From a virus (Duplodnaviria; Heunggongvirae; Uroviricota; Caudoviricetes), in the IMG/VR virus record IMGVR_UViG_2529293084_000006: a stretch of 57,580 nucleotides of DNA, one strand, 5' to 3'. Below the pieces are notes generated by a model. That model was not told the origin of the DNA and did no database searches. It saw only the letters and a program-made list of their open reading frames with translations. Position numbers and translations under genes: made by a program. Shown piece after piece: positions 290 through 25,144 of this stretch. Every line of letters starts with the position of its first letter. The stretch's first letter is position 1.

Positions 290-292
290 GGA

Positions 293-1926: not shown

Positions 1927-2341
1927 GCGTTATCGCACTCCACAGATCATCAAAAGAAATCATTACCGGTCCGTCACGACGCCAGAGGGTGATACTGTTA
2001 CCCAGCTCATTAATCCCGGTGCGGCGGATATCCAGATCAATACGGGACACCACGCCGTCATCAATCATCCATTGCAGGCATTCGCGGATATACCCCCTTA
2101 CTGTCTGCACCAGCTGATTGGTCAGTTTGCTGCGCTGAAGCAGCCACAGTCGTGAGCCGTAACGGTCATTCTGTACCGCAGGCCAGGTATCCCCCCACCA
2201 TCCCATCGGGACGTCGGCGTTGTCATCAGGCTCCGCCCGCCGCCAGGTAAACAGGGAAATCACCACGGCGCGGGTCAGCGGATCCAGCGGTGCGCTGGCG
2301 CAGGTGCGTTTACCGTTCACCGTCAGCCACAGTTCCATCAT
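1913..2341 (-). CDS. Baseplate protein, Mu gp46-like
   Basis: 142-aa ORF homologous to 43883..44320 (WWGD, SRLWLL motifs); conserved position in the baseplate cluster. Confidence 0.6.
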   Translation of the reverse strand: MMELWLTVNGKRTCASAPLDPLTRAVVISLFTWRRAEPDDNADVPMGWWGDTWPAVQNDRYGSRLWLLQRSKLTNQLVQTVRGYIRECLQWMIDDGVVSRIDLDIRRTGINELGNSITLWRRDGPVMISFDDLWSAITHGGQ

Positions 2342-5316: not shown

Positions 5317-5334
5317 TAACAGATTAATTTTTCA

Positions 5335-7170
5335 TTACCTGCCAAAGCGCGTATAGCCAACATCATGGCTGACATCAAAACCGCTGGATCGCGTTTCCAT
5401 AACCCGCATACCCGGAGGCGAATTCACAAAAGAGACCTTGATCTCACCATCAACTTTTGGCGCAGAAGCTTTGTTAATCATGAAGGGATTCGGGCCTGTG
5501 GCACCGGAGGCGTTGTTTGACTGAGCCGGATCTACCGCCTGATAAGGTGTGTATCCCCGTGCCGGTATTCCCGTCCCATAAGCATCATAAGCACCCGCGC
5601 CCCACTGCGCAGAGTTAATGGCATCGACCGTGTCACCGGAACTGTCGGTAAACCACTCAATAATTGGCTTCAGTTTGTCCCACATATCCTGAAACCACTT
5701 AACAACCGGTCCCCAGTTATTGATTACCATCCCCAGCGGCGACCAGGCAAAAACCTTCTTCAGAAGTTCCCAGCCAGCCTCAAAATAAGGACCAATGGTT
5801 TCCCAGAGCTTCTTGAAATAAGGTCCGACAACATCCCAGTTAGTGATAATTAATCCCGCAGCCAGGGCTATCGCCGTCGCAATCATTCCAATCGGCGTCA
5901 TCGACATGATCCTGCTGACAATACTGATGGCACCGCCAACGCCCATCAATCCCAGTTTCAGAATCGCAAGACCGGCAGCAAGCCCGACGACGCCGCGAAT
6001 AACCCGGGGATTTTCATCCGCAAACTTCGTGAATTTTTCCCCTAACTCCCCCAGCCATTGCGTGATATTTTTGGCGTCACCAGAAAATGCGCCGCCAATA
6101 GCCGCAAGGCCGTTAGTTGCGGTCCCCGTCATTGCCTCCCACAGGTTGGACAGCGTACCAAGCTGGGCCTGAACACGTTTATTCAGGCTGGCCTGTTTAT
6201 TCATCTTCTGCTGGATCTGATCGTAGCCATCCTTTCCTTTATCGATTAGTGCATTGACCACCTGAAGGGTTTCGGCATCATCACCAAATATTGCCTTAAG
6301 TACACCTGTTCGCTTAACGTCGGTCAGTTTTCGCAGCTTTGCCAGTTGCCTGAACATGTTATCAAGACCGCCAAAACTTCCTTTGCCGTCAGTAAAATCG
6401 AGCTGTACCCCGAGTTTCTGGCGGGCCATGATTTTATTGACGTCCCTGATTTTCTTAACGCTTAATCCGGACTGGATAACTTTTCGCAGGGCGTTACCTG
6501 CCGACTCCCCGTTCATCCCCATCTGATCCATCATGACGCTGATGGGGGCAAGGCTCTGTGCAGCCTGAAGACCGTCCTTGTTCACCATCTTCAGAACAGA
6601 GCTGGTTTTAGTGAAGAAGGACAACATGTTGGTATCGTCAACACCCAGATAAAACGCCTTCTGGATAGTGTCGAACAGCCCCATCATGTCTTCTGACGCC
6701 GTTCCGGTAGCATCCTGCATCTTTGCAGCAAACTCAGCAGCCGCTTCCGGTGTTTTTTTCAGTTGTACCGCAAGATAAGCTGTCGCTTTACCCACACCGC
6801 CAAGAATGTTTTCTGCCGGGATCCCCTGACGCACCAGCATCTGCATCATGTTCTGGAAATCAGCCGTTGTACCGGGTAGCTGGTTACCCAGGCCAATAGC
6901 CAGTTTATTGATGTCCTGAAAGCTCTTTCCAACCTCGCCGTTCGCATCCATCATGGCGACTTTCAGCCCGGTGGCGGCGTTTTCCTGATCGGCATAAGAT
7001 TTCAGGGAAAGCGTCAGACCCGCTGCCAGTCCGCCACCAAGCGCCAGCCCACCCTGTGACGCTTCTTCCGCCTGGCGTTTAAATCCCCGGATTTTCTTTT
7101 GCATTTTCGACAGCGCGGGAGAAAGCCTGTCGACACCGGTGATCAACGCCTTAAGCTCAAATTCCGCCAT
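5335..7170 (-). CDS. Tail tape measure protein
   Basis: 611-aa protein with Ala/Gly-rich low-complexity stretches and a C-terminal hydrophobic segment; located downstream of the tail chaperone pair. Confidence 0.75.
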   Translation of the reverse strand: MAEFELKALITGVDRLSPALSKMQKKIRGFKRQAEEASQGGLALGGGLAAGLTLSLKSYADQENAATGLKVAMMDANGEVGKSFQDINKLAIGLGNQLPGTTADFQNMMQMLVRQGIPAENILGGVGKATAYLAVQLKKTPEAAAEFAAKMQDATGTASEDMMGLFDTIQKAFYLGVDDTNMLSFFTKTSSVLKMVNKDGLQAAQSLAPISVMMDQMGMNGESAGNALRKVIQSGLSVKKIRDVNKIMARQKLGVQLDFTDGKGSFGGLDNMFRQLAKLRKLTDVKRTGVLKAIFGDDAETLQVVNALIDKGKDGYDQIQQKMNKQASLNKRVQAQLGTLSNLWEAMTGTATNGLAAIGGAFSGDAKNITQWLGELGEKFTKFADENPRVIRGVVGLAAGLAILKLGLMGVGGAISIVSRIMSMTPIGMIATAIALAAGLIITNWDVVGPYFKKLWETIGPYFEAGWELLKKVFAWSPLGMVINNWGPVVKWFQDMWDKLKPIIEWFTDSSGDTVDAINSAQWGAGAYDAYGTGIPARGYTPYQAVDPAQSNNASGATGPNPFMINKASAPKVDGEIKVSFVNSPPGMRVMETRSSGFDVSHDVGYTRFGR

Positions 7171-11442: not shown

Positions 11443-12672
11443 TCAACCACCAACGCTACCTTTCCCCACCAGCGCTTTAATGGCAGAGGTGTCTTCCAGG
11501 ATACAGTCAAAACGATGGAAGGCCAGAAAACCGGTCTGATCATATTCCGCGTAACGCTCAACCAGACGTTTAAGAATCATGTATCGCACACGACGGATAA
11601 TGAAGCGATCAAAGTCACCACAGAACATGCATTTTTTACCCGCCCCGATATCATCAATTTCCTGATCAATGACATACGGTACATTCAACACTGAAGCAGG
11701 TGCCACACCAACAATATCCGGCAACCATAAAGGGCGTCCCTGACCGTCTTCCATCTCACTGATCAGTTTCAGCGTATTATCGTTAAACGCCAGGCGGAAT
11801 TTCGGTCCGCGACGATATGCAGGATCAATGCTGTGTTTCAGAGCCAGAATTTCCTGCCACTTCACCGTATTTGCCGCGGCAGTCTGTGTTGTGCCGGTCA
11901 CAGATGCGACCAGCCCTTTGGGTTGTTTAGGCGTACCAGCACCAGTTCCCTGAATCAGATAACGGGCTTCACCACGACCAATACGTTCAGCAATGCGACG
12001 GGCAAGATAAGCTTCCATATCGATCGCACTGTCCTGCAGCAACTCATTAGACACACGAATTATTTTCGATGTCATTTTGAGCGCCCCAAGGCTTCCCATA
12101 CCGAAATCGGTGTCTTCTTCACCGGCTTCTTCATTTTCGCCCAGCAGAACACCAACTTCGGAAGTACCATCAGCTGTTGCCCACTCCATAGTGCGACCGT
12201 CAGAAGTGGTAAGAATCTGCGCCACACTGGCGATGCCACCGTAGGATTTCATCTTCTCAACAACTTTCGCCAGGAATGTTTCTGGTACGGTATATCCGCC
12301 CTTTTCATCCTGAGCTACGCCCTGGGCACGAAGTTCACGCAACGCCTTTCGTTCTTCTGATGTCAGCTCACTGGCACCGTGACGCATCCACTTATCAAAA
12401 ACCTGAGCTCGTTTCTCATCCTGTTGTGGATTGTTTTCCGGATCAAGATTCTGACGCTGCTCTTCCTCATTGCTTTCAATGTACGCCTGATCCTGACGAC
12501 GCAGTTCTTCTTCGCGTGCAATTCGTTCATCAAGCGCTTCCAGTTCGGATTTTGCTTTGTTCCACTCAGTGCGCTGCTCTTCCGTCCATGCGTTATCACC
12601 AATTTTTTCATTCAGGGCGCGCATGTCAGTTGCGATAGTATTACGTTTCTGTTTCAGTTCATGCAGTTTCAT
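11443..12672 (-). CDS. Major capsid protein, HK97 family
   Basis: 409-aa ORF with an N-terminal charged coiled-coil delta-domain-like region followed by a capsid-sized body; follows the prohead protease gene. Confidence 0.8.
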   Translation of the reverse strand: MKLHELKQKRNTIATDMRALNEKIGDNAWTEEQRTEWNKAKSELEALDERIAREEELRRQDQAYIESNEEEQRQNLDPENNPQQDEKRAQVFDKWMRHGASELTSEERKALRELRAQGVAQDEKGGYTVPETFLAKVVEKMKSYGGIASVAQILTTSDGRTMEWATADGTSEVGVLLGENEEAGEEDTDFGMGSLGALKMTSKIIRVSNELLQDSAIDMEAYLARRIAERIGRGEARYLIQGTGAGTPKQPKGLVASVTGTTQTAAANTVKWQEILALKHSIDPAYRRGPKFRLAFNDNTLKLISEMEDGQGRPLWLPDIVGVAPASVLNVPYVIDQEIDDIGAGKKCMFCGDFDRFIIRRVRYMILKRLVERYAEYDQTGFLAFHRFDCILEDTSAIKALVGKGSVGG

Positions 12673-12682
12673 GATGTTTCCT

Positions 12683-13285
12683 TTACGCGTTAAGAAGGGT
12701 CAGGACGCGTTCACGCGCCATACGTTGATTAATGGCTTTCTGTAGCGCGCCGCTGTTGCGCGCCTCCTGCCATGCTTTCATGGAGCGAACAGCCGAGTCA
12801 GCCTCCTGATAGGCAGGATATGTCACAGGACTGACATCCAGCAGACGGGAAAAGCGGGTTATCTCGCGAATAACAACCCCGTCCTCATCCTGATACCACT
12901 CCTCGCCGTCACGGGCGACACGGAAAGCAAAAGATGACTGGTTAATATCTCCACGTTGCATCGGGGCCAGCACCAGATCACGAATGGTCTGTGTCTCCGG
13001 AGCCTGGATGTCATAGCGCAATCCGCGCTCATCAACTGAAAGATTCAGCGTGCCTGCTGCACTACGCCCAAGAATAAAATTAGGATCGTGGTTAAACAGT
13101 GCGCGTACATCATCACCAAGCACATCGTCAAAAGCGCCGGGCCGGATGATTTCGCGGAATGAACCAAATATCAGCTCAGAACGACAGTCAAACACCGATC
13201 CATAACCGATAATGTGCGCAGGGTTATCGTCATGCCGCTCAGCACGCACCTCACCGCTGTAACAACGGATTTCACGGTCATTCAT
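12683..13285 (-). CDS. Prohead protease, HK97 family
   Basis: ORF 12683..13342 trimmed to the ATG at 13285 (MNDREIR..., RBS GAGGGA upstream); sits between portal and major capsid. Confidence 0.7.
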   Translation of the reverse strand: MNDREIRCYSGEVRAERHDDNPAHIIGYGSVFDCRSELIFGSFREIIRPGAFDDVLGDDVRALFNHDPNFILGRSAAGTLNLSVDERGLRYDIQAPETQTIRDLVLAPMQRGDINQSSFAFRVARDGEEWYQDEDGVVIREITRFSRLLDVSPVTYPAYQEADSAVRSMKAWQEARNSGALQKAINQRMARERVLTLLNA

Positions 13286-13646
13286 TGGTTTTTCCCTCAT
13301 CATTTTTTGGGGGCTTAAAATCTCCTGCCGGGTTAGCAGCATTCACGCTTACCAGCATCTCATCCAGCCCTTCAACCGGATTCATATCCTCGAATGCGCG
13401 GGCTTCATTACGGCTCATCCATCCATCGGTAATAGCGAAGTGATAGAATTGCGCGCGCTCCTGCGGAGTTCCGCGTAAAAGCCCCGTCAGATTGAACCTA
13501 ACGTAATACCCGGCGGCTAACTCAGCGCGGGTAAACAAGCGACGGTTAAGCTCCTGCTCCCAGTTCGTTACCCACGGCATCATCGTGTAGCGGACAAACT
13601 GAATCGCCTGCGCAGAAATATTGGAGAATGTAACCAGGTGAATCAT
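13278..13646 (-). pseudogene. Portal protein C-terminal fragment (gene interrupted by the Mu-like insertion)
   Basis: 122-aa ORF; the frame ..VTFSNISAQ.. continues the N-terminal fragment ending ..INDLEKATF at 52920, so the two pieces reconstruct a ~415-aa HK97-type portal. Confidence 0.75.
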
Positions 13647-13815
13647 TTGATACCAACGAGGGTTTTAGTGAAAGGAGGTGAAATCACCTGTAAGATACTG
13701 AAATAAAACAGGTGATGTCTGGATGAGCGCTTAAAGTCTATTTGATACCGATTGTGCAATAATTAATCGTTTATTCTAAAATCGGCAAAACTTTTGATAC
13801 TGCGATCTCAACTTT
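13629..13815 (+). repeat. Mu-like left end with three transposase-binding repeats (L1-L3-like)
   Basis: TTTGATAC(C) at 13646, 13741 and 13793, i.e. about 17, 112 and 164 bp from the terminus, close to the Mu L1/L2/L3 spacing as I recall it; terminus begins TGTAACC. Confidence 0.6.
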
Positions 13816-13878
13816 TTAAAGCGTTTAAAACTTCATTAAATCTATATGGCAACTAACATACGGGCCAGCCTCGCCAAA

Positions 13879-14409
13879 CTAACCCGCTTTAGATTCTACC
13901 GGATTTGATTGCCTACTTGTCTCGGTTTTTTCCAAAATCTCTCTGACGCAATCGTCTGGCATATCTACAATCATCAACGCAGCCAGGCGCTTCCTGCCTT
14001 CTAGTTGTAATAAATCCTGGTTTTCTTTATCCAGCAGTGTCAGAACCGTCTCTACACCTTTGCGAGCAAGGAGATTGGTTAACTGTTCTCGTTCGTCTTT
14101 CGTAAGGAATGAAAGCATCTGTGTAAGTTGATCTCCCTTATCACCAGAACAACCAAAATTACCACAAATACCAACATCGTTTGGTGATTCACCCTTGCCC
14201 TCTTTAAGCCACTCAAGACTAACTCCTTCACTTTCAGAAATTCGTATAAGGATACTTTCTCTGGGGGCTGGTTGTGTTTGTCCTCCCTTGAAATAGCTGT
14301 TTAATGTGTTGATATTGATTCCCCACGCTCTGGCAGCTGCACTTCTTGAAGGGTAGCGCTTTGTAAGCATTCCAATACGTTCAATAACAGGTTCTTTTCC
14401 CTGCGACAT
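13879..14409 (-). CDS. Prophage repressor (Mu c-like position), HTH DNA-binding protein
   Basis: ORF 13879..14484 trimmed to ATG at 14409 (MSQGKEP..., RBS AGAGG); N-terminal helix-turn-helix; divergent from ner with a palindrome-rich operator region between. Confidence 0.6.
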   Translation of the reverse strand: MSQGKEPVIERIGMLTKRYPSRSAAARAWGININTLNSYFKGGQTQPAPRESILIRISESEGVSLEWLKEGKGESPNDVGICGNFGCSGDKGDQLTQMLSFLTKDEREQLTNLLARKGVETVLTLLDKENQDLLQLEGRKRLAALMIVDMPDDCVREILEKTETSRQSNPVESKAG

Positions 14410-14491
14410 AAAGATACCTCTTGGTGCTTTTCTAAGGAAAGGTTTCTTTCTATTTATCCAATTGAAAAATAAGGATAAAAGCAAAAATTAG

Positions 14492-14529
14492 CCAAAATAC
14501 CAAAAATACCTTGATTTGGTATTTTTGGT
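14492..14529. promoter_or_regulatory. Candidate operator: perfect 12-bp inverted repeat ACCAAAAATACC-7bp-GGTATTTTTGGT with an adjacent CCAAAATAC direct copy
   Basis: Read directly in the c-ner intergenic region. Confidence 0.45.
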
Positions 14530-14539
14530 GATGCATTAT

Positions 14540-14579
14540 TTACCCGTGCAGATATCCGCACGAATATCCGCGCGGGTAA
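14540..14579. promoter_or_regulatory. Second operator-like element: TTACCCG ... CGGGTAA arms enclosing direct repeats GATATCCGCA / GAATATCCGCG
   Basis: Read directly; 20-60 bp upstream of the ner start, where the early promoter is expected. Confidence 0.4.
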
Positions 14580-14599
14580 CTTTTTAGAATAGAGGAAGT

Positions 14600-14848
14600 A
14601 TGAGTAGAAGAGAAGTTTCAGATCACGATTGGCCGCCTGAAATCATCAAGGCGCGCTTACACATGGCTGGCTTATCACTGCGCTCTTTATCTTTAAAGGC
14701 TGGTTACAGCAGGGATTCGCTGAAAAGCGTATTACGTACTCCTTGCCGACCGTATCAGCAAATAATTGCTGATGCTCTTGGGGTATCGCCTGAAGAAATC
14801 TGGCCCAGTAGATACCAGGTTAAGAGCTATATGAGAAAGGCGTCATGA
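14600..14848 (+). CDS. ner: Ner-like DNA-binding early regulator
   Basis: 82-aa protein; C-terminal ..IIADALGVSPEEIWPSRYQ matches the Mu Ner / Nlp family motif (EVIWPSRYQ). Confidence 0.8.
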   Translation: MSRREVSDHDWPPEIIKARLHMAGLSLRSLSLKAGYSRDSLKSVLRTPCRPYQQIIADALGVSPEEIWPSRYQVKSYMRKAS

Positions 14849-14849
14849 T

Positions 14850-16940
14850 ATGTATGTCATTGCAAAAGAACTGATTGGCGCGCCCGGAATGCCTGCTACA
14901 ACAAAAGGTATTCGCCAGGCATTACAACGTTACGTACAAGGGAAAAGCTGTTGTTCCCGTCGTCGCTCAGGCTCTAAAGCAACTGAATACAGCATCGACT
15001 GTTTACCTGAAGTGACGCAGCAGGCATTACGTGAACGTTATGCCCTGCAACTGATGACGCAAAAAGCCGATGAATCACCGGCTCCGGTGGTGACAAAGGC
15101 CAGACGCTCATCTGACGTGGTTGATGCGGTGGAGGCATATCGCGGATCACCACAACTGATGGTCGAACGCCTCAATGCCCTGACTGAAAACCAGCGCCAG
15201 GTGGCTGATGCACGAATCGCGATCGTCAGCGAAGTGATGAAAGTCGCGCAACAACCCGGTTTCAGCTGCGCGAAGGCTATCCGGTTTATCGTTGACAACC
15301 TGGCACGTTCACAGCTGGACGAGCGCATTGTGGCAATGGTTGAGACGGCGAACGCCAAAAAGGGAAACAGCCGTGCGTTGAGTGAAATCACGCTGAAGCG
15401 ATGGATTGCGGCCTTTAACAAGGCACAGAACGCCGCTGAACGCCTGCTTTTACTGGCACCGGGTAAACGCCAGGAAATAAAAGCCGAAGATATTAACTGG
15501 CTGCCCGAATTTCTGGCGCAGTATCGCCAGTCAAACGGCCGACCAATGACCGAGGCTTACGAGGATTTTGTCGCTGAATGGCAGCACCGGCACGCTGATG
15601 AGCCTTATATGCTCGATATCATGCCGTCTTATGACACCATTCGCCGCGCAATGAAGAAACTGCCGGAAGTGGTGAAACAAAAAGGCCGGGTGACCGGCAG
15701 TGAATACCGCCAGCTTGAGGGATTCACGCGCCGCGACTGGTCCAGAATGCCGGTGAATTATGTCTGGATTGGTGACGGTCACGGCATGAAGCTGAAATGC
15801 GCGCACCCGGTTCACGGGCGGCCATTTGCACCGGAAGTAACCTTTGTTATCGATGGCGGCACGCGCTTTGTGGTGGGCTGGAGCCTTGACCTGGCTGAAA
15901 ATGTTTTCGCCGTAGCCGGTGCCATACAGCACGGCATTCGCCATCACGGCAAACCGTTTCTGTATTACTCGGATAACGGTTCCGGGGAAACCGCCGACAT
16001 CCTGGATAAGGAGATTGTGGGGATACTGCCACGACTGGGGATTAATCACCCGACAGGGATTGCCGGTAACCCGCAGGGACGGGGCATTATCGAACGGCTT
16101 AACCGCACATTACCGATGCGCATAGCCCGTAAATACCGCACCTATTTCGGGAAAGGTGCAGATCGCGAGACGTTACGCAAAACCAACCGCGATTTACGCT
16201 CGGCATTTACCGCCCTGCAACAGGGCAAACGGCTGAACGCCCGGCAGCAGTCAGCGATGCGTGATTTACCGTCCTGGGCTGAACTGATTGATGCCATTCG
16301 TGATGGTGTTGAGTGGTACAACAACCGGCCGCACGATGAATTACCGGTGAAGCCGAACGGCAAGCATTACAGCCCGGCGGAGTTCAGAAAAAAACGCCTG
16401 GCGGAAGAGGACACGGAAATTGAATGGCTGTCCGATGTTGAGCTGCGGGATATGTTCCGGCCGATGGTGGAACGCCCTGTTAGACGCTGTGAAATACGCT
16501 GGCTGAATAATATTTACTACGCGCCCGAGCTGCGTGACGAGCATGGCCGTAAGGTGCTTATCAGCTATGACATTCATGATGCCGAACGAATTATCGTACG
16601 TCGCCTGGATGGCAGCGTGATTTGCGAGGCGGTATGGGACGGCAATAAACGCGAAGCCTTCCCGGTCAGCGCGGAATACTACAAACAGCAGCAACGCCTT
16701 AAAGGCATGCGTAAACGCGCAGAGGAAAAAATCCGTGATGCCGAGGATGAGGTGGTCAACGTGCTGGAGCACAAGCCGCAGGAGCCCTGGCTGGAAAACA
16801 TCTATCGCCCGGTAGGTAATACGGTGGCCGTTCAGCAACCTGCCGTTGATGATGAGCCTGATGAAGAATACGAGCGTAATTTCCAGCGGGGATTGCAGTT
16901 GCTGGAAGCGAAATTAAAAGAAAATGACCCGCTGGCCTGA
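14850..16940 (+). CDS. A: Mu-type DDE transposase A
   Basis: 696-aa ORF immediately after ner and before the B ATPase; N-terminal DNA-binding region resembles MuA; size as MuA. Confidence 0.85.
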   Translation: MYVIAKELIGAPGMPATTKGIRQALQRYVQGKSCCSRRRSGSKATEYSIDCLPEVTQQALRERYALQLMTQKADESPAPVVTKARRSSDVVDAVEAYRGSPQLMVERLNALTENQRQVADARIAIVSEVMKVAQQPGFSCAKAIRFIVDNLARSQLDERIVAMVETANAKKGNSRALSEITLKRWIAAFNKAQNAAERLLLLAPGKRQEIKAEDINWLPEFLAQYRQSNGRPMTEAYEDFVAEWQHRHADEPYMLDIMPSYDTIRRAMKKLPEVVKQKGRVTGSEYRQLEGFTRRDWSRMPVNYVWIGDGHGMKLKCAHPVHGRPFAPEVTFVIDGGTRFVVGWSLDLAENVFAVAGAIQHGIRHHGKPFLYYSDNGSGETADILDKEIVGILPRLGINHPTGIAGNPQGRGIIERLNRTLPMRIARKYRTYFGKGADRETLRKTNRDLRSAFTALQQGKRLNARQQSAMRDLPSWAELIDAIRDGVEWYNNRPHDELPVKPNGKHYSPAEFRKKRLAEEDTEIEWLSDVELRDMFRPMVERPVRRCEIRWLNNIYYAPELRDEHGRKVLISYDIHDAERIIVRRLDGSVICEAVWDGNKREAFPVSAEYYKQQQRLKGMRKRAEEKIRDAEDEVVNVLEHKPQEPWLENIYRPVGNTVAVQQPAVDDEPDEEYERNFQRGLQLLEAKLKENDPLA

Positions 16941-16947
16941 AATAAAA

Positions 16948-16977
16948 AAATAACCCGAGCGGCGACTCAGGTTATTT
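16948..16977 (+). terminator. Hairpin in the A-B intergenic region (possible attenuator)
   Basis: AAATAACCCGAG-CGGCGA-CTCAGGTTATTT, about 11 bp stem with one mismatch, followed by T-rich sequence. Confidence 0.3.
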
Positions 16978-17011
16978 GATTAAACAAGGTATCAAATGAG
17001 AGGTTAATAAT

Positions 17012-17944
17012 ATGACTGATATTAACGATGTAATCAAGACCATTGATGAACTTATTGATGGCGGCGTACTGACGCAGTATGCCATCGCCAGAGAGGCGGG
17101 AATTTCCGACGGCACATTATCGGCTTTCCGCAAGGGGAAATATAAAGGCGATAACGCCGCTGTGGCTGCTTCCCTGCGTTCCTGGTATGAAAACTGGAAT
17201 AAACAAAGCGCACTGCCGGAACCGCCGCAGTTTGTGGAAACGCAGACAGTTCAGGAGCTGCGCGCACTGTTTCAGGCGGTTCGCCTGATGGGCTGTATTA
17301 ACGTCATTGTGGGCGTGCCGGGGGTAGGTAAAACGGCCACCGCCCGTAATTACTGCCAGGAGCAACCAAACACCTGGATGATCACCCTGTCACCCGCGCA
17401 CTCCAGCGTCACGGAGTGTCTGCTGGAGCTGGCCGATGCGCTGGGGATTGATTACACCCGCGCGAACAAAGGGGCATTATCCCGCGCCATCCGCCGTCGC
17501 CTGATGGGAACGCGTGGACTGGTGATTGTGGATGAGGCGGATCATCTTGGTATTGACGGTCTGGAGCAACTCCGGGCAATTCAGGACGCCACGGGGATCG
17601 GGATGGTGCTTATTGGTAACCCGCGCGGATTGTTTAAAGGTGGACGCCGCGCCTTTGATGATTTATCGCGCCTGTTCAGCCGTCTTGCCCGTACAAAACA
17701 ACTTCGCAAGGCCAAAAAGGCGGATGTGCTGGCCATTGCCAGGGCATGGGGTATCAGTGGTGAGGCCGAGCTGGCCGTCATGCAGGCTATCGCTGAAAAG
17801 CCGGGAGCGTTACGCGTTCTGACACATACGCTTAACCAGGCGTGGCTCACCGCCAGCGGTGAAGGTGCGGCGCTGACAGAAAAACATATTAATGCGGCCT
17901 TTAAAGAGGTTTATACCAACCCTGAATTACTCTCACAGGTGTGA
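17012..17944 (+). CDS. B: Mu B-type AAA+ ATPase (transposition target DNA activator)
   Basis: 310 aa; Walker A GVPGVGKT; N-terminal HTH; follows the transposase. Confidence 0.85.
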   Translation: MTDINDVIKTIDELIDGGVLTQYAIAREAGISDGTLSAFRKGKYKGDNAAVAASLRSWYENWNKQSALPEPPQFVETQTVQELRALFQAVRLMGCINVIVGVPGVGKTATARNYCQEQPNTWMITLSPAHSSVTECLLELADALGIDYTRANKGALSRAIRRRLMGTRGLVIVDEADHLGIDGLEQLRAIQDATGIGMVLIGNPRGLFKGGRRAFDDLSRLFSRLARTKQLRKAKKADVLAIARAWGISGEAELAVMQAIAEKPGALRVLTHTLNQAWLTASGEGAALTEKHINAAFKEVYTNPELLSQV

Positions 17945-17946
17945 TT

Positions 17947-18168
17947 ATGGCGGTATTTTATATTCCTGATATTTACGGACGCTTTTACCTGGTTAATTTC
18001 GATAACGTGAAGGTGATTTCACTGGCCGAAAATAAAGAATGTGGCGATTTACTTTTTGAATTTAATGACCGCACACGAATGGTGATATCTGCCGGACTTG
18101 ATCGCGAAGGTGCGACAGAAGTTTACAGCGGAATATGCCGTTCTGTTGGTGCGAAACAAGTCAGCTAA
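17947..18168 (+). CDS. Small early protein at the Mu kil position
   Basis: ORF 17941..18168 trimmed to ATG at 17947 (73 aa); first gene after B as kil is in Mu; assignment by position only. Confidence 0.3.
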   Translation: MAVFYIPDIYGRFYLVNFDNVKVISLAENKECGDLLFEFNDRTRMVISAGLDREGATEVYSGICRSVGAKQVS

Positions 18169-18180
18169 ATGAGGTGTTAT

Positions 18181-18435
18181 ATGAATATGCAATCCTGCGG
18201 TAACAAAATGAATTTATTCGACTCCCTGAACAGCGCGCGCCGTCTGACCGAACTTGCCGGTGCGGTACTGGAACGCAGTAAGCGCTATCCGCAACGTTTT
18301 GCACTGAAAACCACGCCGCCGGCAGGCAACGTGCAGGGAACCGGTGAAATTGAAATCACCATACAGACCAACGGCCTGCGCCGCCGTGTGAAGGCCACCC
18401 GCATCAGCGGCTGCACGGTTTACTGGGAGGTGTGA
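18181..18435 (+). CDS. Hypothetical early protein
   Basis: ORF 18169..18435 trimmed to ATG at 18181 with GAGGTG RBS. Confidence 0.4.
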   Translation: MNMQSCGNKMNLFDSLNSARRLTELAGAVLERSKRYPQRFALKTTPPAGNVQGTGEIEITIQTNGLRRRVKATRISGCTVYWEV

Positions 18436-18436
18436 G

Positions 18437-18718
18437 GTGAAACGAAATCTCATTGCATGGGCGTGGTCGAGTGGTCTTATTGAGTTTGGTTACGTCCTGC
18501 CAGAAGGTGCATTGCCGATAGTTGCCGGAAAGCCTGCCACGGTACGGCATGTGATTGAGGTTATGGCGCGTCATGGACGTGATGAACAGAAGCAGTTACT
18601 GGTTCCGGGGATACCGGAAGCGGTGACGGAGGAAGAAGCCTTTAATGCCATGATTCGGTTCTGCCGTGAGGTCAGACGCCGGGTCAGTTATCCAAACAGA
18701 ACGAGGACCAGAGGATGA
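18437..18718 (+). CDS. Hypothetical early protein
   Basis: 93-aa ORF, GTG start preceded by GGAGG. Confidence 0.4.
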   Translation: MKRNLIAWAWSSGLIEFGYVLPEGALPIVAGKPATVRHVIEVMARHGRDEQKQLLVPGIPEAVTEEEAFNAMIRFCREVRRRVSYPNRTRTRG

Positions 18719-18987
18719 GTAAAGTCGTACGCATTATTTTCGAATACAAGGAAGACGTTATCTGTAAAAACTCTGATGGCAGTGCGCACATGGGGGTAAG
18801 TCTGGATATACGGTCAACCGGAATAAAGAAGAAAGATAATGGACCCGCCACGATTTTTGGAGTGGTTATGCTCGCGGAAAGCAGAAACTTCGCAGAGCTT
18901 GTGGCAATGAAAGCCAGTGCATTCATGAAAGACAGGGGCATGGCTTCCGGGGTTATTAACGGTAATGAATTTAATCAGCAGGGGTAA
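18715..18987 (+). CDS. Hypothetical early protein (tandem paralog 1)
   Basis: Begins MSKVVRIIFEY...; the next gene begins MSKVRVIFEF... Confidence 0.45.
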   Translation: MSKVVRIIFEYKEDVICKNSDGSAHMGVSLDIRSTGIKKKDNGPATIFGVVMLAESRNFAELVAMKASAFMKDRGMASGVINGNEFNQQG

Positions 18988-18991
18988 TTCC

Positions 18992-19285
18992 ATGAGCAAA
19001 GTACGCGTTATTTTTGAATTTAACCACGTAATGCATGAAGTAAAGCCAGCCGGTAATGATAGTCAGGAAATCACGGAGGGGGTTACTGCCACTGTAAAAG
19101 TCGAACGTGATACGGAGAACAGACCGACAGGCCCATGTGATGTTTATGCGCAAATTCTTAAATATCACAGCCCCACAATTATTCAGTTTCTGACAGATGA
19201 ACTACAGGGTTCCATGCAGGCCATGGGGGTAAGCAGCTCCGTTGAACGCCGTTCTGTTCAGAACGGACCAGATACATTGCAATAA
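18992..19285 (+). CDS. Hypothetical early protein (tandem paralog 2)
   Basis: ORF 18965..19285 trimmed to ATG at 18992; N-terminus paralogous to 18715..18987. Confidence 0.45.
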   Translation: MSKVRVIFEFNHVMHEVKPAGNDSQEITEGVTATVKVERDTENRPTGPCDVYAQILKYHSPTIIQFLTDELQGSMQAMGVSSSVERRSVQNGPDTLQ

Positions 19286-19296
19286 GGAAAAACAAA

Positions 19297-19827
19297 ATGG
19301 CAAAACGCGTTACAAAATTAAAGGCCGCAGCCGAGGCTGCACCGCAGACCCGCGAAGAGGTCAGCCGCGATATCCGCACCCTGGGCGATATTCAGCGAGA
19401 GGCGCTGCGGCTGGAAACGGCGATGAATGATGAAGTGGCAGAAATCACCGCCCGTTATACGCCGCAGATTGAAAACCTTAAAAAAGAAATCAAAGTGCTT
19501 TTTAAGGGGATTCAGGACTGGTGCAAAACCAACCGAGATGAGCTGACGAACGGAGGCAAAACAAAAACTGCCAATCTGACCACCGGCACGGTGTCATGGC
19601 GGCTGGGAAATCCATCATGCAGCGTCAGCCGTGATGTGGAAGGCGTGATTGAAATGCTGCGCCGTATGGGGCTTGAGCGATTCATCCGCACGAAAGAGGA
19701 AGTGAACAAGGAAGCCGTCCTGGCGGAGCCGGATGCGGTGAAAGGCATTGCCGGTATAAAGGTGAATAAAGGCGCTGAAAGTTTTTATGTCGAGCCTTTT
19801 GAACAGGACGCCGGACTGAATAAATAA
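19297..19827 (+). CDS. gam: Gam-like host-nuclease inhibitor (DNA-end-binding)
   Basis: 176 aa; matches Mu Gam as I recall it along its length (ANRDELTNGGKxKTANLxTGxVSWR, LGLxRFIRTKxExNKEA). Confidence 0.8.
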   Translation: MAKRVTKLKAAAEAAPQTREEVSRDIRTLGDIQREALRLETAMNDEVAEITARYTPQIENLKKEIKVLFKGIQDWCKTNRDELTNGGKTKTANLTTGTVSWRLGNPSCSVSRDVEGVIEMLRRMGLERFIRTKEEVNKEAVLAEPDAVKGIAGIKVNKGAESFYVEPFEQDAGLNK

Positions 19828-19924
19828 CACCACATTAAATCTTTAAATATCACATCGTTTTAATTATGGCGCTCGCGTCAGGGGACTGCCTGCGCCTGAA
19901 AGCTGAAAATAAGGAATCGGAAAC

Positions 19925-20467
19925 ATGGCATATTTTTATTTCAAATTAGACATAGTGTACACAAATAAATATTTAACCGAATATCAGCGGGATGTTTTAC
20001 CGCTACGCAACAGTATTCTTCGGGCATTACTGAAAAATACAGGCGCTGCCGGATTGCGCTTAAAGCCGTTCGCCATGGACGTAATCAGTGAGTTTTATTT
20101 TTCTGGTTCTCTGCCTGCGGGCTGGCGTAAGCGCGATGATGTGGCTTTTATCGGGGGCGGACCGTGCTTTATTGCCAGACCTGATGAGTCATGCCCTGAA
20201 GGTCCGGCGATTGCCGCAATGGTTGAAGCCGCTGAACGCGAGTTAAGAAAGCGTCCTGATTTCCTTGTCTGGCTCTGTGAAAAGCTGGGGGTAATGAGAA
20301 TCCCCTCCATGTTTAACACGGACTCCTGGTGGACCCCTTCGTTCTCCCGTGATGCCCTGTGCGTGGTGTTTAAAGTGGGCGCTTATGGCAGGGAAATAAA
20401 CGGGTGTATTCCTGAAGAATGCCAGGAAATTAAACATTCTGAATATGTGGCGCTGACGGAGGAATAA
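19925..20467 (+). CDS. Hypothetical early protein
   Basis: 180-aa ORF with RBS. Confidence 0.4.
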   Translation: MAYFYFKLDIVYTNKYLTEYQRDVLPLRNSILRALLKNTGAAGLRLKPFAMDVISEFYFSGSLPAGWRKRDDVAFIGGGPCFIARPDESCPEGPAIAAMVEAAERELRKRPDFLVWLCEKLGVMRIPSMFNTDSWWTPSFSRDALCVVFKVGAYGREINGCIPEECQEIKHSEYVALTEE

Positions 20468-20470
20468 TTC

Positions 20471-21004
20471 ATGATTGATGCAAAAGTGCTTGAAGGGGTT
20501 AAAAACTGGCTGAGTATTTACGGGCGTCTGACCTGCGGAGTTCTGGCTGAAAAAATGAATATGCCGCCATCCTCGATGGTTTATTTTCTGCGTGATGCGG
20601 TTGATGCCGGGGTGCTGACGGAATGTAACGGTTTTTATGATATTCCGCGTCCCCGCCCGGTGCAGCCGGTTCGTCGCAAATGCAGCCAGGAGTCTGCGGC
20701 TGATGATGTTCAGTGGTGCAGCTTCAGAAAATCCCTGCCGTGGATTGAGGGGCATGATATTCCGTCGATGGCGTGGGAATTTGCTCAGGGCATACTGACC
20801 TGTGAAACCGTTTATGTGGTGGCTGAAGTTGATGAGCAGGCCATGAAAGAAGGTGTACCCCAGTTTGTGATGGCGTATATCGACATACGCCTGGGTGTCA
20901 TTATCTGCGGTTTAAGCGGCTGGAATATCACCGGACATGTTCTGCGTTACCTGATTGTTGACCGGACAGCGGCACCGGCCGCGATTTCTGCGGAGGTGGC
21001 GTAA
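20471..21004 (+). CDS. Hypothetical early protein, possible N-terminal winged-helix
   Basis: 177-aa ORF with GGAGG RBS. Confidence 0.4.
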   Translation: MIDAKVLEGVKNWLSIYGRLTCGVLAEKMNMPPSSMVYFLRDAVDAGVLTECNGFYDIPRPRPVQPVRRKCSQESAADDVQWCSFRKSLPWIEGHDIPSMAWEFAQGILTCETVYVVAEVDEQAMKEGVPQFVMAYIDIRLGVIICGLSGWNITGHVLRYLIVDRTAAPAAISAEVA

Positions 21005-21519
21005 TGTTCTTTAAAACATCGAACCCTGCCGCGCTGGCCGCGTGGCAAAAATATCAGCAGGACTGCCAGAAAGTTAAGGATGAGGCAAAGCGCCTTGAGG
21101 CTGTGCTGAATGTTGATTGCCGGTCGGTATTTGTATCCGATATCAGTGGCTTTTGTTTTAAGGGGCTGAGTTTTACGGATGACAAATATCCTTTTCATCG
21201 TGATTTATGGCGAAAACCAACTGCGTCGAATGGCTGGAGCTGCACACCGCGCACGTCACGTATCCCTAAAGCCCTGCGTGTTGCCTCTGATGAACTGAAT
21301 ATTCTGTGGTTTGAATATTCGCCCGTCACGTATGCCAGAACCGATGCGCTGTTGTTCTGGCTGGGCATTGACTTCTCAGCAATATTGCATGGTCCCGTGA
21401 AGTGGTTCTGCGTTGACGATGTGATTTATCTCCAGTGCGGCGTAAAACCCGCAAAACAGAGAATGACCGAAATTCTGCCTGATGAGTTTTATGCTGCCGA
21501 AAAGCGAGTCAGGGGGTGA
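21004..21519 (+). CDS. Hypothetical early protein
   Basis: 171-aa ORF with GGAGGTG RBS. Confidence 0.4.
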   Translation: MFFKTSNPAALAAWQKYQQDCQKVKDEAKRLEAVLNVDCRSVFVSDISGFCFKGLSFTDDKYPFHRDLWRKPTASNGWSCTPRTSRIPKALRVASDELNILWFEYSPVTYARTDALLFWLGIDFSAILHGPVKWFCVDDVIYLQCGVKPAKQRMTEILPDEFYAAEKRVRG

Positions 21520-21522
21520 TGC

Positions 21523-22074
21523 ATGATGAAATTACAACCCATGGGGAGAAAAGGCCGTGCACCCGCTCATGTCCGTGCGTGGACACCTGAAGAAGATGCA
21601 CTGCTGATTGCGCTTTATCCATCCACCCCGGTTAAGGATATTGCTGTCAGGGTAAAAAGAAGTTTCTGGGGTGTACATCACCGGATTGTTTTATTACGCG
21701 GCACTTACCCGGAGTTGCTCAAATGCAAACGTCCAAGATTTAAACATGATGAAGATAAATTTATCCGAAAAAATGCCAGAACGATGACCGGTAAGCAAAT
21801 AGGAGAATATCTGGGGCGAGACCGGGATTCTGTCCACAATCGGGCGAGATATATTGGCGTAAGCATGAAAAAATACGGAGAATTGCTGCCCTTCACCCGT
21901 ATATCTGATGATGATGTTCGTCTTATTCGTGAATTACGGGATGCTGAATCACCACGACGTCTTACCTTCCGGGAAATAGGCGAGAAATTTGAATTATCCG
22001 AGAGTACGGTAAATTTTATTTATCACCATCGCCGGACTGCCGAAGATGTTGTATTACGGGAGTTAATGCCATGA
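21523..22074 (+). CDS. Protein with Mor/C-family C-terminal HTH domain and an N-terminal extension
   Basis: 183 aa; C-terminus ..IRELRDAESPRRLTFREIGEKFELSESTVNFIYHHRR resembles the Mor C-terminal HTH as I recall it. Confidence 0.45.
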   Translation: MMKLQPMGRKGRAPAHVRAWTPEEDALLIALYPSTPVKDIAVRVKRSFWGVHHRIVLLRGTYPELLKCKRPRFKHDEDKFIRKNARTMTGKQIGEYLGRDRDSVHNRARYIGVSMKKYGELLPFTRISDDDVRLIRELRDAESPRRLTFREIGEKFELSESTVNFIYHHRRTAEDVVLRELMP

Positions 22075-22382
22075 TAACGACATTATTTGTTGAATCAGAC
22101 GAGCCTCTGGTATGTGCCGCCGGAATGTCGGTTTGTGGCGGAACGCTGACCGGTGTTTATTTCGGGGATTTGCGCGGTTATCCCTGGCATTCACTGGATG
22201 ACGCATTTCCGCCTGATATGGAGGCTGTCGTGCTGATTGTTCAGTATGGTGACCAACAGGAACTGCGCATCGGCCATATGGGGTATGAAGGCTTTTTTAT
22301 TGATGAAGAAACCGGAGCCTGCCTTGAAGATGAGGACGGACAGGTGACGCACTGGTGCCATATTTCAGCTTTACCGGAATGA
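22071..22382 (+). CDS. Hypothetical early protein
   Basis: 103-aa acidic ORF. Confidence 0.35.
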   Translation: MITTLFVESDEPLVCAAGMSVCGGTLTGVYFGDLRGYPWHSLDDAFPPDMEAVVLIVQYGDQQELRIGHMGYEGFFIDEETGACLEDEDGQVTHWCHISALPE

Positions 22383-22396
22383 CGGGAGGTGAATGC

Positions 22397-22747
22397 GTGA
22401 GAAGTTATATTGATAATGAAAAACTGAAGACAATCAGCGACTGTCTTAGCTTGCTGGCAAAAATAAAAGAAACCATTGAAGAGATTAAATTTCAGCTTGA
22501 ATACGCACCCTGTGGTGATGATACATGGCGTAACTCTGCCAGAAAAGCACTGGCTGTCTTTCAGAAACAACGCCGGACTGTTGAATACCGCCTTGCTGTA
22601 TTACGCCAGGAGGAAAAGGAAAGAAATATAAGATGTCACGAGCGCGTTAATAACTTCCTTGTTCGTGAATTAAAAGAACGTGTGCCGGAGTCGGTATTTT
22701 TTGAGTGTGAGGCTGTTGCCCGTAGCAAAGCACTGGAAACTGATTAA
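22397..22747 (+). CDS. Hypothetical early protein
   Basis: ORF 22355..22747 trimmed to GTG at 22397 with GGAGG RBS. Confidence 0.35.
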   Translation: MRSYIDNEKLKTISDCLSLLAKIKETIEEIKFQLEYAPCGDDTWRNSARKALAVFQKQRRTVEYRLAVLRQEEKERNIRCHERVNNFLVRELKERVPESVFFECEAVARSKALETD

Positions 22748-22759
22748 ACAGGCAGGTGA

Positions 22760-23095
22760 ATGATGAGTATTGAATTAAGATCGTCTTATGAATATCGTAA
22801 AATTCTCATCGCCGGAGGCATGAAACCGGAAGATGCAGAAAAAATTGTTTCTTTTATGGATAAAGAATGTGACAAACGGGATATGCCAGAAATTATTATG
22901 GATGACATGATTCTGCATTCAGCCGTAGCGTTAAGCCCGTTATGGATTGTGCATTCTCTTGCTGAAATTGCCAAAGGCACCGATAAACAGGCAGCTGTTG
23001 CTGCCCTTCAGACGCTTAATGAAATGCGTATATCTCCACGCCCGACATTAATACATATGATTCTCTCCAGTATGGAGGATAAAGCAAATGAATAG
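22760..23095 (+). CDS. Hypothetical early protein
   Basis: 111-aa ORF. Confidence 0.35.
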   Translation: MMSIELRSSYEYRKILIAGGMKPEDAEKIVSFMDKECDKRDMPEIIMDDMILHSAVALSPLWIVHSLAEIAKGTDKQAAVAALQTLNEMRISPRPTLIHMILSSMEDKANE

Positions 23096-23285
23096 TCTAC
23101 CCGCTGGATGGGCGCGGCCACTAATGGCCAGGAAGCATCATTTTTTTAAAACAGGCGAAAATATCAGTATATGTGGACGGTGGTTATATCTGGCTCATAA
23201 TCGCGAGCCGGATACATTTGAAAGCCCTGATGACTGTGCCGAATGCCGCAGAAGAGTGAATAAGGAGAAAGATAATGGACAATAG
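23088..23285 (+). CDS. Small Cys-containing protein (possible zinc ribbon)
   Basis: 65 aa with ICGRW...CAEC; GGAGG RBS. Confidence 0.35.
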   Translation: MNSLPAGWARPLMARKHHFFKTGENISICGRWLYLAHNREPDTFESPDDCAECRRRVNKEKDNGQ

Positions 23286-23571
23286 TTCTCTGTTGTTCTG
23301 GTGCTTATATATCACATCCTTTTTCGGCGCATTTGTTATTACCCGGTGGTTATGTCGAAAAATCATCTGCTTTTTTGATAAAAGACATCCGGTTGAACGG
23401 GCGGCTGATGCGCTCATTCAGCAGGCCATTGTGTTATATAGCGGTGAATTTTTCTGCCGAATAACAACCAGAGATGGCTGGCACATAATGATTATTCCAC
23501 CAACACACCATGCCCGGTGGGATGAGGCAGAAAAGGCTTTCCATGTCCGTAAAAAGGTAAATACGGTATGA
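23275..23571 (+). CDS. Small membrane protein
   Basis: 98 aa with a hydrophobic N-terminal helix; AAGGAG RBS. Confidence 0.35.
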   Translation: MDNSSLLFWCLYITSFFGAFVITRWLCRKIICFFDKRHPVERAADALIQQAIVLYSGEFFCRITTRDGWHIMIIPPTHHARWDEAEKAFHVRKKVNTV

Positions 23572-24077
23572 GAGGAAAACTGATATCCGCCATTCATGTG
23601 GCAAAGCGCGAGCTTGCCCTGGATGATGAGACTTATACATCCGCGCTGCTGGCAGCCACCGGCAAAACCAGCTGCCGGGATATGTCAGCGGATGAGTTAT
23701 CCCGCGTGCTGGATGTTTTCAAAAAACGCGGTTTTAAAGTGCGCCAGAAGCCGGTTAACCGGGCCTTAAAACCGGGTACGGTGACCGCCAAAATTCGTGC
23801 CATCTGGAAGGTAATGCACCGGCAGGGCTTTATCTCTGATGGTGCGGAAACCGCCCTTAACCGCTGGGTGAAATCGCAGACGGCCGCGCAGAACGGCGGC
23901 GAAGGTGTGGCAAACTGGCAGTGGCTGGAGCAACACCCCGCCCTGGCCTCAGATGTGCTGGAGCGTCTCAAGCGATGGCACCGCCGCAAAATGCTGGCCG
24001 CGATGGGAATGCCCGAACGCACGCTGATGGGGTATGACGCCGTTTGCAGGCAGTATGAAAAATCACTTCCCCGTTAA
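23568..24077 (+). CDS. GemA-like protein (Mu gp16 family)
   Basis: 169 aa; last early gene before a strong terminator; motifs (HVAKRELALDDETY, DMSxxELxRVLDxFKxxGFK) match my recollection of GemA. Confidence 0.55.
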   Translation: MRGKLISAIHVAKRELALDDETYTSALLAATGKTSCRDMSADELSRVLDVFKKRGFKVRQKPVNRALKPGTVTAKIRAIWKVMHRQGFISDGAETALNRWVKSQTAAQNGGEGVANWQWLEQHPALASDVLERLKRWHRRKMLAAMGMPERTLMGYDAVCRQYEKSLPR

Positions 24078-24081
24078 CCCC

Positions 24082-24112
24082 AAATCCCGCCACAACGCGG
24101 GATTTTTATTTT
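24082..24112 (+). terminator. Rho-independent terminator at the end of the early operon
   Basis: AAATCCCGC-CACAAC-GCGGGATTT stem followed by TTTTTATTTT, about 10.45 kb from the left end. Confidence 0.7.
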
Positions 24113-24146
24113 AAACTTACCGGGAACGCGAGAACCGGAGGCTGAT

Positions 24147-24572
24147 ATGGCAGAAACTCAGATGAGCATGTTTGGTGGTGACAGTGAGCAACTGCACGCC
24201 CTTATCGACCGCCTTGATGACATCCCTGATGATGTTCTCAAAAAGAACTGGCCGCGGACCCTGTCAGAACTGGTTGAAGTCACCGGCGCAGAACTTCAGC
24301 GTCAGGGGATTGAGCCGGTACTGGCCGGTAAACTGGCACGCAAGGTGGCTGCGGCTCAGGCCGCCTATATGGGCGGACGGGGTTATTACCTGCCGGTCGG
24401 GGAATCTCTCTTTGCCGAGCTGCGAAACAATGAGATATTTTCGCGCTGGGACCGGGGCGAGAAAATTGAATCCCTTCGCCGCCATTACCGGATGTCAGAA
24501 ACCCAGATTTATACCGTCATACGCGAACAGCGCCGTCTGCATCTGGCAAGAACGCAACCGCCACTTTTCTGA
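24147..24572 (+). CDS. Mor/C-family transcription activator (C-like, late-gene activator by position)
   Basis: 141 aa; C-terminus (..GGRGYYLPVG..LRNNEIFSRW..RMSETQIYTVIREQRR) matches the Mor/C HTH pattern; located just upstream of the lysis genes. Confidence 0.65.
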   Translation: MAETQMSMFGGDSEQLHALIDRLDDIPDDVLKKNWPRTLSELVEVTGAELQRQGIEPVLAGKLARKVAAAQAAYMGGRGYYLPVGESLFAELRNNEIFSRWDRGEKIESLRRHYRMSETQIYTVIREQRRLHLARTQPPLF

Positions 24573-24643
24573 TATTCCGCAAAGCCTGCCGCCTCTCCTT
24601 CACCGTTACGCTGACTCAGAGAACATCATGAGACAGCGTAACA

Positions 24644-25144
24644 ATGCCAAAACTCCCCGCATCACTGCGTAAAAAGCTGATTGCCCTTGTTCTGGCCGGT
24701 GCCGGGACGTTCACTATTGCCACGCATTACACCGGTTACTGGGAAGGGAAAGAAAACTCCACGTATATCGATCCCACCGGTACACCCACCATCTGTTACG
24801 GCCATACCGGCCCGGATGTGAAACCGGGTATGACCCTGACAGATGAAGAATGCCTGGAACTACTGGAAAAGGACATGAAATGGGCCTTTGCGGCCATTGA
24901 TCGGCGTGTTCAGGTGCCGCTTACCCGTGGTCAGACGGTGGCGCTGGCTTCGTGGATCTTCTGGGCCGGTGAAACGAACTTTCGCAACTCCACGCTTCTG
25001 CGCCTGATCAATGCCGGGCAGATGCCCGCGTCCTGTAAGCAGTATATCCGCTGGATTTATTCAAAGGGGGTGAAACTCCCCGGCCTTGAGGCCCGCCGTT
25101 CGGCGGATGAATGGTTATGTCGCTACGACTTGCCGAAAGTCTGA
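24644..25144 (+). CDS. Endolysin, T4-lysozyme-like muramidase with an N-terminal hydrophobic (SAR-like) segment
   Basis: 166 aa; motif EGKENSTYIDPTGTPTICYGHTG; N-terminal ALVLAGAGTFTIA. Confidence 0.75.
   Translation: MPKLPASLRKKLIALVLAGAGTFTIATHYTGYWEGKENSTYIDPTGTPTICYGHTGPDVKPGMTLTDEECLELLEKDMKWAFAAIDRRVQVPLTRGQTVALASWIFWAGETNFRNSTLLRLINAGQMPASCKQYIRWIYSKGVKLPGLEARRSADEWLCRYDLPKV

Follow-up and report, generated by a model that had tools for sequence, protein, structure and literature searches.

Positions 17947 to 23571 of a 57,580-nucleotide (nt) stretch of viral DNA (IMG/VR record IMGVR_UViG_2529293084_000006; the whole stretch is hereafter the window) contain 15 open reading frames (ORFs) on the plus strand. 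We interpret this block as the semi-essential (SE) early accessory region of a Mu-like prophage, whose products would affect the host at an early stage of lytic growth, and we place the probability of this reading at about 85%. The block is flanked by the transposition gene B on one side and gemA on the other and shares the strand of A and B, as does the SE region in Mu. The SE region of Mu contains 14 ORFs that are co-transcribed with A and B on the early transcript (PMC3325207). It specifies host-lethal functions, and hosts regain viability after infection when it is deleted (PMC3325207).

The original prediction, made from the sequence alone, had described 14 tightly packed small ORFs plus gam, each with a ribosome-binding-site-like motif, as a counterpart of the early kil/gam region of Mu. 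Our own ORF listing and the RefSeq annotation of the identical record agree with this gene count and with the coordinates given, and the flanking genes and shared homologs support the correspondence to the Mu region. The block contains the following features:

17947-18168, plus strand: O1, 73 amino acids (aa), phrog_3375 (PHROG match), ratio of nonsynonymous to synonymous polymorphism (pN/pS) 0.27
18181-18435, plus strand: O2, 84 aa, basic (pI 10.3), putative Kil-family protein distant from Mu Kil (PHROG match and name given by the Prokaryotic Genome Annotation Pipeline, PGAP)
18437-18718, plus strand: O3, 93 aa, member of a Mu-like phage family mislabelled ‘host nuclease inhibitor’
18715-18987, plus strand: O4, 90 aa, phrog_4107 (PHROG match)
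18992-19285, plus strand: O5, 97 aa, phrog_2230 (PHROG match)
19297-19827, plus strand: O6, Gam, 176 aa, Mu Gam family (PF07352)
19828-19924, plus strand: intergenic gap of 97 nt after gam
19925-20467, plus strand: O7, 180 aa, divergent DUF5420-like protein in a variable slot
20471-21004, plus strand: O8, 177 aa, Mu gp11 ortholog (PF25754, phrog_1949)
21004-21519, plus strand: O9, 171 aa, Mu gp12 ortholog (phrog_2314)
21523-22074, plus strand: O10, 183 aa, basic (pI 10.1), gp9-like protein (phrog_323)
22071-22382, plus strand: O11, 103 aa, very acidic, weakly DUF551-like
22397-22747, plus strand: O12, 116 aa, phrog_6158 (PHROG match), variable cassette
22763-23095, plus strand: O13, 110 aa, phrog_1988 (PHROG match), variable cassette
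23088-23285, plus strand: O14, 65 aa, phrog_2358 (PHROG match)
23275-23571, plus strand: O15, 98 aa, phrog_17269 (PHROG match)

These ORFs are real genes. The block is about 97% coding (approximately 160 of 5625 nt are non-coding), and neighboring genes are separated by -11 to +15 nt, with the gap after gam as the sole exception. Scans of that gap revealed no promoter-like site, terminator-like site or Rfam family. Each of the 15 starts is preceded, at a distance of 5-12 nt, by a Shine-Dalgarno-like motif of the GGAG/AGGA type. PGAP places four of the starts downstream of the longest-ORF start (O2 at 18181, O5 at 18992, O12 at 22397 and O13 at 22763). All 15 proteins match PHROG families (E values from 1e-32 to 1e-105), and their exact sequences belong to clusters of 162-2247 members that come nearly entirely from E. 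coli and Shigella. Measured against allelic copies from related prophages, the 15 ORFs have pN/pS values of 0.07-0.52, indicative of purifying selection, although these comparisons are not independent and the O11 and O15 values derive from very few substitutions.

The family matches, ribosome-binding-site-like motifs and pN/pS values below 1 are together far beyond what chance would produce and thus establish the ORFs as genes. It is hardly credible that several of the small ORFs are instead chance open frames. Their lengths (65-116 aa) and the ten proteins that have neither a function nor a characterized homolog could be read that way, but the genes are also conserved in hundreds of genomes, and the three longest opposite-strand ORFs in the region, which have no PHROG match, show none of these features. 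An Rfam scan of positions 13800-25000 identified no family, and a repeat search returned only short matches of the kind expected by chance.

Five of the 15 proteins (O2, O6, O8, O9 and O10) have Mu counterparts, and the earlier view that only gam is recognizable was therefore too pessimistic. Gam (O6) is the clearest case: residues 19-167 align to positions 1-149 of the 149-position PF07352 profile (142.2 bits versus a cut-off of 28.3), the protein is 57% identical to Mu Gam, and its pN/pS is 0.07. O8 is 68% identical to Mu gp11 over its full length, matches the Gp11_C domain (PF25754, 137 bits versus 27) and shares phrog_1949 with gp11. O9 is 54% identical to Mu gp12, also over its full length; the two share phrog_2314, and an O9 ortholog carries the name ‘Mu-Gp12 family protein’.

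O10 matches phrog_323 (E value 6.8e-59), a family that also contains Mu gp9, to which its C-terminal two thirds are related (31% identity). Sub-threshold helix-turn-helix (HTH) and Myb Pfam matches fall at residues 19-32 and 130-167, and O10 is similar both to phage entries named ‘DNA binding protein’ and to the regions of phage HNH endonucleases that bind DNA. Public cluster names for O10 are ‘AsnC family’ or ‘DNA-binding’. These resemblances suggest that O10 is probably a multi-HTH DNA-binding protein. We also considered an arrangement of three internal HTH repeats and rejected it for lack of statistical support (best z-score 2.8).

O2 is a putative Kil-family protein, an assignment weaker than that of Gam. 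It matches phrog_2679 (E value 2.9e-45) and, more distantly, phrog_2743 (E value 1.4e-3), while Mu Kil matches phrog_2743 strongly and phrog_2679 with an E value of 9e-5, so that the cross-matches are reciprocal. Over 39 residues, O2 shares 31% identity with the C-terminus of Mu Kil (E value 6e-4), and an O2 ortholog is named "Kil protein family" in newer PGAP annotation. O2 does not directly follow B but is separated from it by O1.

The block thus resembles the Mu SE region (kil to gemA, Mup05-Mup16) in its location between B and gemA, its strand, its dense run of about 14 small ORFs and its possession of Gam, gp11, gp12, a gp9-like protein and a putative, distant Kil. It differs in that neither BLAST nor PHROG comparison links 10 of the 15 genes to a Mu gene, and in that Mu gp6, gp7, gp8, gp13, gp14 and gp15 are missing. 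Gene order differs too, as the gp9-like gene follows gp12 rather than preceding gam and O1 stands ahead of the kil-like gene. The original prediction was to be discarded if every ORF matched a well-characterized Mu early gene. This is not the case: we found Mu matches for only 5 of the 15, and among these just gam and kil have a described function.

A content that departs from Mu in two thirds of its genes, and in order, is normal for an SE region, as judged from sister prophages. We examined 80 IMG/VR loci fetched via Gam, about 40 of which are close relatives (B 98-100% and Gam 94-100% identical). O1, O2, O4/O5, Gam, O8, O9 and O10 are present in all of the approximately 40 close relatives, and O1, O5 and O10 each exist as divergent allele classes. 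O1 alleles are 73-100% identical, and the two O5 classes (about 58% versus over 90% identity) are about 58% identical to each other. The O3 slot is either intact or deleted to a 22-residue remnant, the latter in about one third of sister prophages. In some sister prophages, O1 and O2 are separated by an optional gene of 139 aa with weak similarity to Mu gp8. The slot after gam contains O7, a 196-aa DUF5420 homolog (24% identical to O7) or nothing.

The cassette after O10 takes three alternative forms in these relatives. It consists of O11, O12 and a partial O13; of a 61-aa membrane protein followed by O13-O14-O15; or of O11 and, after it, Mu gp13 and gp14 homologs. O11 itself is thus present or absent, and O15 alleles are 50% and 100% identical. 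The window has the fullest combination, with O11 through O15 together. Six of the loci (L011, L022, L027, L028, L031 and L033) have the Mu gp13/gp14 homologs in place of O12-O15; the gp13 homolog is a Cys-rich protein of 46 aa (phrog_5584) and the gp14 homolog belongs to phrog_6075 (for example, L027 10123-10263 and L028 10253-10555).

The block is therefore built from a conserved backbone and replaceable slots (O3, O7 and O11-O15). The absence of the slot genes from some relatives is indirect evidence that they may be dispensable for growth. The same block occurs in other Mu-like E. coli prophages and in copies within Shiga toxin (Stx) phages, but alleles and cassettes vary from copy to copy. 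Such turnover is expected of accessory host-interaction genes and does not indicate which interaction is involved.

Several features of the surrounding sequence bear on how the block would be expressed:

13879-14484, minus strand: Mu-type repressor
17012-17944, plus strand: B, a Mu B-type AAA ATPase and transposition gene
23568-24077, plus strand: gp16/GemA (PF06252, 106 bits)
24082-24105, plus strand: intrinsic terminator-like hairpin of 9 bp (5 G-C pairs) with a T-run, just after gemA

In a consensus scan, promoter- and terminator-like sites were not in excess within the block, and the strong hairpin after gemA is the probable end of the early transcript. On the basis of these pattern scans, we infer a single early operon, ner-A-B-O1...O15-gemA. 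The 15 genes would be transcribed on induction as the distal part of this operon, up to the hairpin, and many of them appear to be translationally coupled through overlaps of 1-11 nt. By analogy with Mu, O2 (Kil) may block division or kill the cell, Gam may bind DNA ends and shield them from RecBCD, and O10 and probably the gp11 ortholog (O8) may bind DNA. The small variable proteins would most likely bind and modulate host proteins.

Four observations weigh against an early, host-directed SE region as the identity of this block. The Kil assignment draws on PHROG cross-matches and the 31% identity over 39 residues. Ten of the proteins are without any functional lead. The operon structure is derived from pattern scans that left the expected early promoter unflagged. 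Finally, the Mu-like prophage Sp18 of O157 Sakai was reported not to be mitomycin-inducible (PMC2669165), which bears on the present prophage under the assumption that Sp18 belongs to the same lineage.

The ten genes without a Mu counterpart (O1, O3, O4, O5, O7 and O11-O15) share no PHROG with any Mu SE protein and have no above-threshold Pfam, NCBIfam or PADLOC match and no PDB match. The names of public clusters are all ‘hypothetical’ for the block, except for O3 and O10. O4 and O5 align at the profile level (hhalign probability 84%, E value 7.7e-6), which suggests that they are probably tandem paralogs that arose by duplication; both N-termini read MSKV(V)R(V/I)IFE(Y/F). O14 covers only the N-terminal 64 of the 146 phrog_2358 profile positions and contains three Cys and several His residues. 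O15 has a hydrophobic N-terminal segment (residues 5-23), suggesting a putative membrane anchor.

O7 has few relatives (14 clusters) and a conserved C-terminus, IKHSE(Y/F)(V/I)A(L/I)TEE. Its homologs in SfMu and Yersinia Mu-like phages are 36-40% identical, occupy the equivalent position and are named DUF5420 by NCBI (the SfMu gene among them). O7 itself falls below the Pfam DUF5420 (PF17457) threshold, with no match up to an E value of 0.1; the same is true of its 38% identical homolog P0327. The alternative 196-aa allele of the O7 slot, in contrast, scores 51.3 bits against DUF5420 (cut-off 26). The pN/pS of O7 is 0.52, the highest in the block. A literature search found no paper on DUF5420.

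O11 is strongly acidic, with a pI of 4.05, 19 Asp and Glu residues versus 2 Lys and Arg residues and a net charge of about -17. Its family is very narrow: E. coli and Salmonella contribute 16 clusters, and an O11 profile run exhaustively with HMMER against 1.84 billion proteins returned 14 representatives, two of which were spurious, being long matches to eukaryotic repeat proteins that we discarded. The sole Pfam match is to DUF551 (PF04448) and is sub-threshold (13 bits versus a cut-off of 22, E value 0.2); the remote homolog P0332 reaches 15.9 bits (E value 0.025). It is the acidity by itself that invites a DNA-mimic hypothesis for O11, which has the acidic composition of Ocr/ArdA-type DNA mimics but no detected sequence homology to them.

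O3 is the only non-Mu gene of the block with a wide distribution. A profile search identified at least 1512 clusters in this family, from Pseudomonas, Enterobacteriaceae, Yersinia, Serratia, Bordetella and others. Members also occur in phages (75 records, among them D3112, DMS3, JBD phages and Burkholderia BcepMigl). In Pseudomonas transposable phages (D3112, DMS3 and the JBD series), Gam is accompanied by an adjoining O3-family gene that is 43-51% identical to O3, and the remaining early genes are unrelated to the present block. The O3-like gene follows gam in D3112-type phages, whereas O3 lies 578 nt upstream of gam in the window.

Many O3-family copies, and phrog_1518, are named ‘host nuclease inhibitor’. 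The annotated gam coding sequence (CDS) of D3112 encodes a 266-aa protein in which a Gam domain precedes an O3-like domain. Gam and the O3-like protein are encoded by two separate genes in DMS3 and JBD69, and in DMS3 these genes are adjacent, 1 nt apart. DNA alignment revealed that the D3112 record (AY394005, 2400-2560) has one A fewer than both DMS3 (1100-1260) and the IMG/VR relative L150 (4899-5060). The chimeric D3112 CDS is thus explained by a 1-nt deletion, which shifts the frame so that gam misses its stop codon and continues into the O3-like gene that follows. The name ‘host nuclease inhibitor’ most likely spread from the D3112 record to phrog_1518 and to the O3-family NCBI entries. 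Because the chimera is a frameshift product, the name has no functional basis for O3.

For the same reason we rejected the Gam-O3 fusion as a Rosetta-stone linkage. Two further loci, L151 and L115, were flagged as Gam-O3 fusions by an ORF-span script and were discarded on account of stop codons in both translations. Among distantly related Mu-like contigs, the O3-like domain forms the C-terminal half of a longer open frame with a putative start in L063 (IMGVR_UViG_3300050160_000033, 4934-5416), the N-terminal part of which weakly resembles DUF551 (E value 0.085). A longer open frame of this type, likewise with a putative start, is found in L077 (5789-6259), where the N-terminal region of about 65 aa has no Pfam match.

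The remote-homology and structure-prediction searches called for by the original prediction produced the Kil, gp11, gp12 and gp9-like assignments, and confident AlphaFold models of O3 and O7 gave no convincing PDB fold match. Searches of PDB sequences with the O3 profile and with O8, O9 and O10 returned nothing significant. NCBIfam contained no match for any of the 14 non-Gam proteins, and PADLOC returned nothing except a marginal homing-endonuclease DNA-binding match for O10 (E value 0.006). We found no known anti-defence family (Acr, Ard, Ocr, Tad, Gad or others) in the Pfam, PHROG and NCBIfam annotations, which are general libraries only. Literature searches covering Mu early genes and anti-defence in Mu-like and transposable phages yielded no report on what these genes do.

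These results bear on three alternatives to a general host-directed role. The database name of O3 implies that it could be a functional partner of Gam in DNA-end protection or nuclease inhibition. This is unlikely. Among 54 diverse loci chosen by O3, 24 also encode Gam, and in all 24 of these Mu-like contigs the two genes share a strand and lie no more than 650 nt apart (no more than 100 nt in 12), an arrangement that, like their adjacency in DMS3, favors a partnership. However, the name traces to the chimeric D3112 CDS, Gam could not be detected by tblastn or hidden Markov model search in the other 30 of the 54 loci, and about one third of sister prophages have lost O3 while keeping Gam. Moreover, O3 has no PF07352 match in a Pfam search, and its adjacency to Gam may be inherited synteny. 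Another possibility, in line with the candidate anti-defence genes proposed in the original prediction, is that one or more of the variable-slot genes (O3, O7 and O11-O15) are dedicated to countering specific bacterial immune systems, which would make the region a strict anti-defence island. The support is indirect. Near-identical prophages differ by the exchange or loss of slots, as is typical of loci engaged in an arms race; no other gene of the block reaches the pN/pS of O7; and the charge profile of O11 resembles that of DNA-mimic inhibitors. In addition, a Gam-family protein from a different phage reportedly inhibits Sir2+HerA and DUF4297+HerA and triggers a retron (bioRxiv 10.1101/2024.04.14.589459). 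We regard counter-defence roles for these genes as plausible but less likely than not, since no protein matches a known anti-defence protein in sequence or fold, the O11 family is tiny and DUF551-like rather than Ocr- or ArdA-like, and host-takeover or superinfection-exclusion genes would also account for cassette turnover.

A related and equally tentative suggestion is that at least one variable-slot protein represents a novel type of inhibitor acting on a host immune or repair system. The candidates are O11, O7, with its invariant acidic C-terminal tail, and O3, which is widespread and Gam-adjacent. Such an activity would provide the first function for DUF5420, for the O3 family and possibly for DUF551, families that are common in Mu-like and lambdoid phages. 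Finally, some genes might serve the lysogen, through superinfection exclusion or defence, rather than the lytic cycle. The hydrophobic N-terminal segment makes the possibly membrane-anchored O15 an example, and early-operon genes of Pseudomonas transposable phages show exclusion activity when expressed (PMC9936078). We consider a lysogenic role very unlikely, as the genes lie inside a putative repressor-controlled early operon with no convincing internal promoter and have no PADLOC matches. The preferred interpretation remains an SE region with products directed at the host in early lytic growth.

The region is therefore an ordinary case of a well-known kind, the Mu SE region, and nothing in it would surprise a Mu specialist. 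Its prophage lineage is already represented in hundreds of sequenced genomes, and its gene families are already catalogued as unknowns. Of most use are the slot map, the identification of gp11, gp12, gp9-like and putative Kil proteins and the exposure of an artefactual label: the ‘host nuclease inhibitor’ name carried across a family of this size goes back to one frameshifted record and is not functional evidence. Cassette turnover marks O3, O7 and O11-O15 as sensible first targets for toxicity and counter-defence screens. Of 5426 complete E. coli genomes, 262 contain the block (90-100% identity), with O157:H7, O121 and O103 strains among them. It thus represents a catalogue of real, uncharacterized early genes in about 5% of complete E. 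coli genomes, many of them Shiga-toxin-producing. The block is also present in the Stx-converting phage records LC727881 and LC727895, as an "inserted Mu-like phage".

The window matches the chromosome of E. coli strain 89-3156 (NZ_CP027366.1) with 100% identity. The Mu-like transposable prophage spans about 13631-53231 (39.6 kb) and is apparently complete. Genes around the block encode the Mu-type repressor, Ner, transposase A, B, GemA, a Mor/C-family activator and lysozyme. Insertion of the prophage has split a family-2 glycosyltransferase gene, the halves of which (12365-13630 and 53232-53648) are annotated in RefSeq as incomplete pseudogenes, one on each side.

Three further observations concern the rest of the prophage. 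A single Mor-family gene (24147-24572) follows gemA; its product is 39% identical to Mu C (E value 6e-26) versus 27% to Mu Mor, and its position downstream of the terminator-like hairpin suggests that it may be transcribed apart from the early operon. At the right end of the prophage (51861-53067), a gene for a Com-family regulator is followed by one for a DNA cytosine methyltransferase. Mu has com-mom at the equivalent right-end position, and by analogy the methyltransferase may represent another DNA-modification (anti-restriction) module that is controlled in a similar way. In the tail-fibre region, a recombinase gene (47931-48490) is annotated as frameshifted and, judged by its position, may encode a Gin-like invertase; it is followed by a gene for a 680-aa DUF6645 protein (48590-50632).

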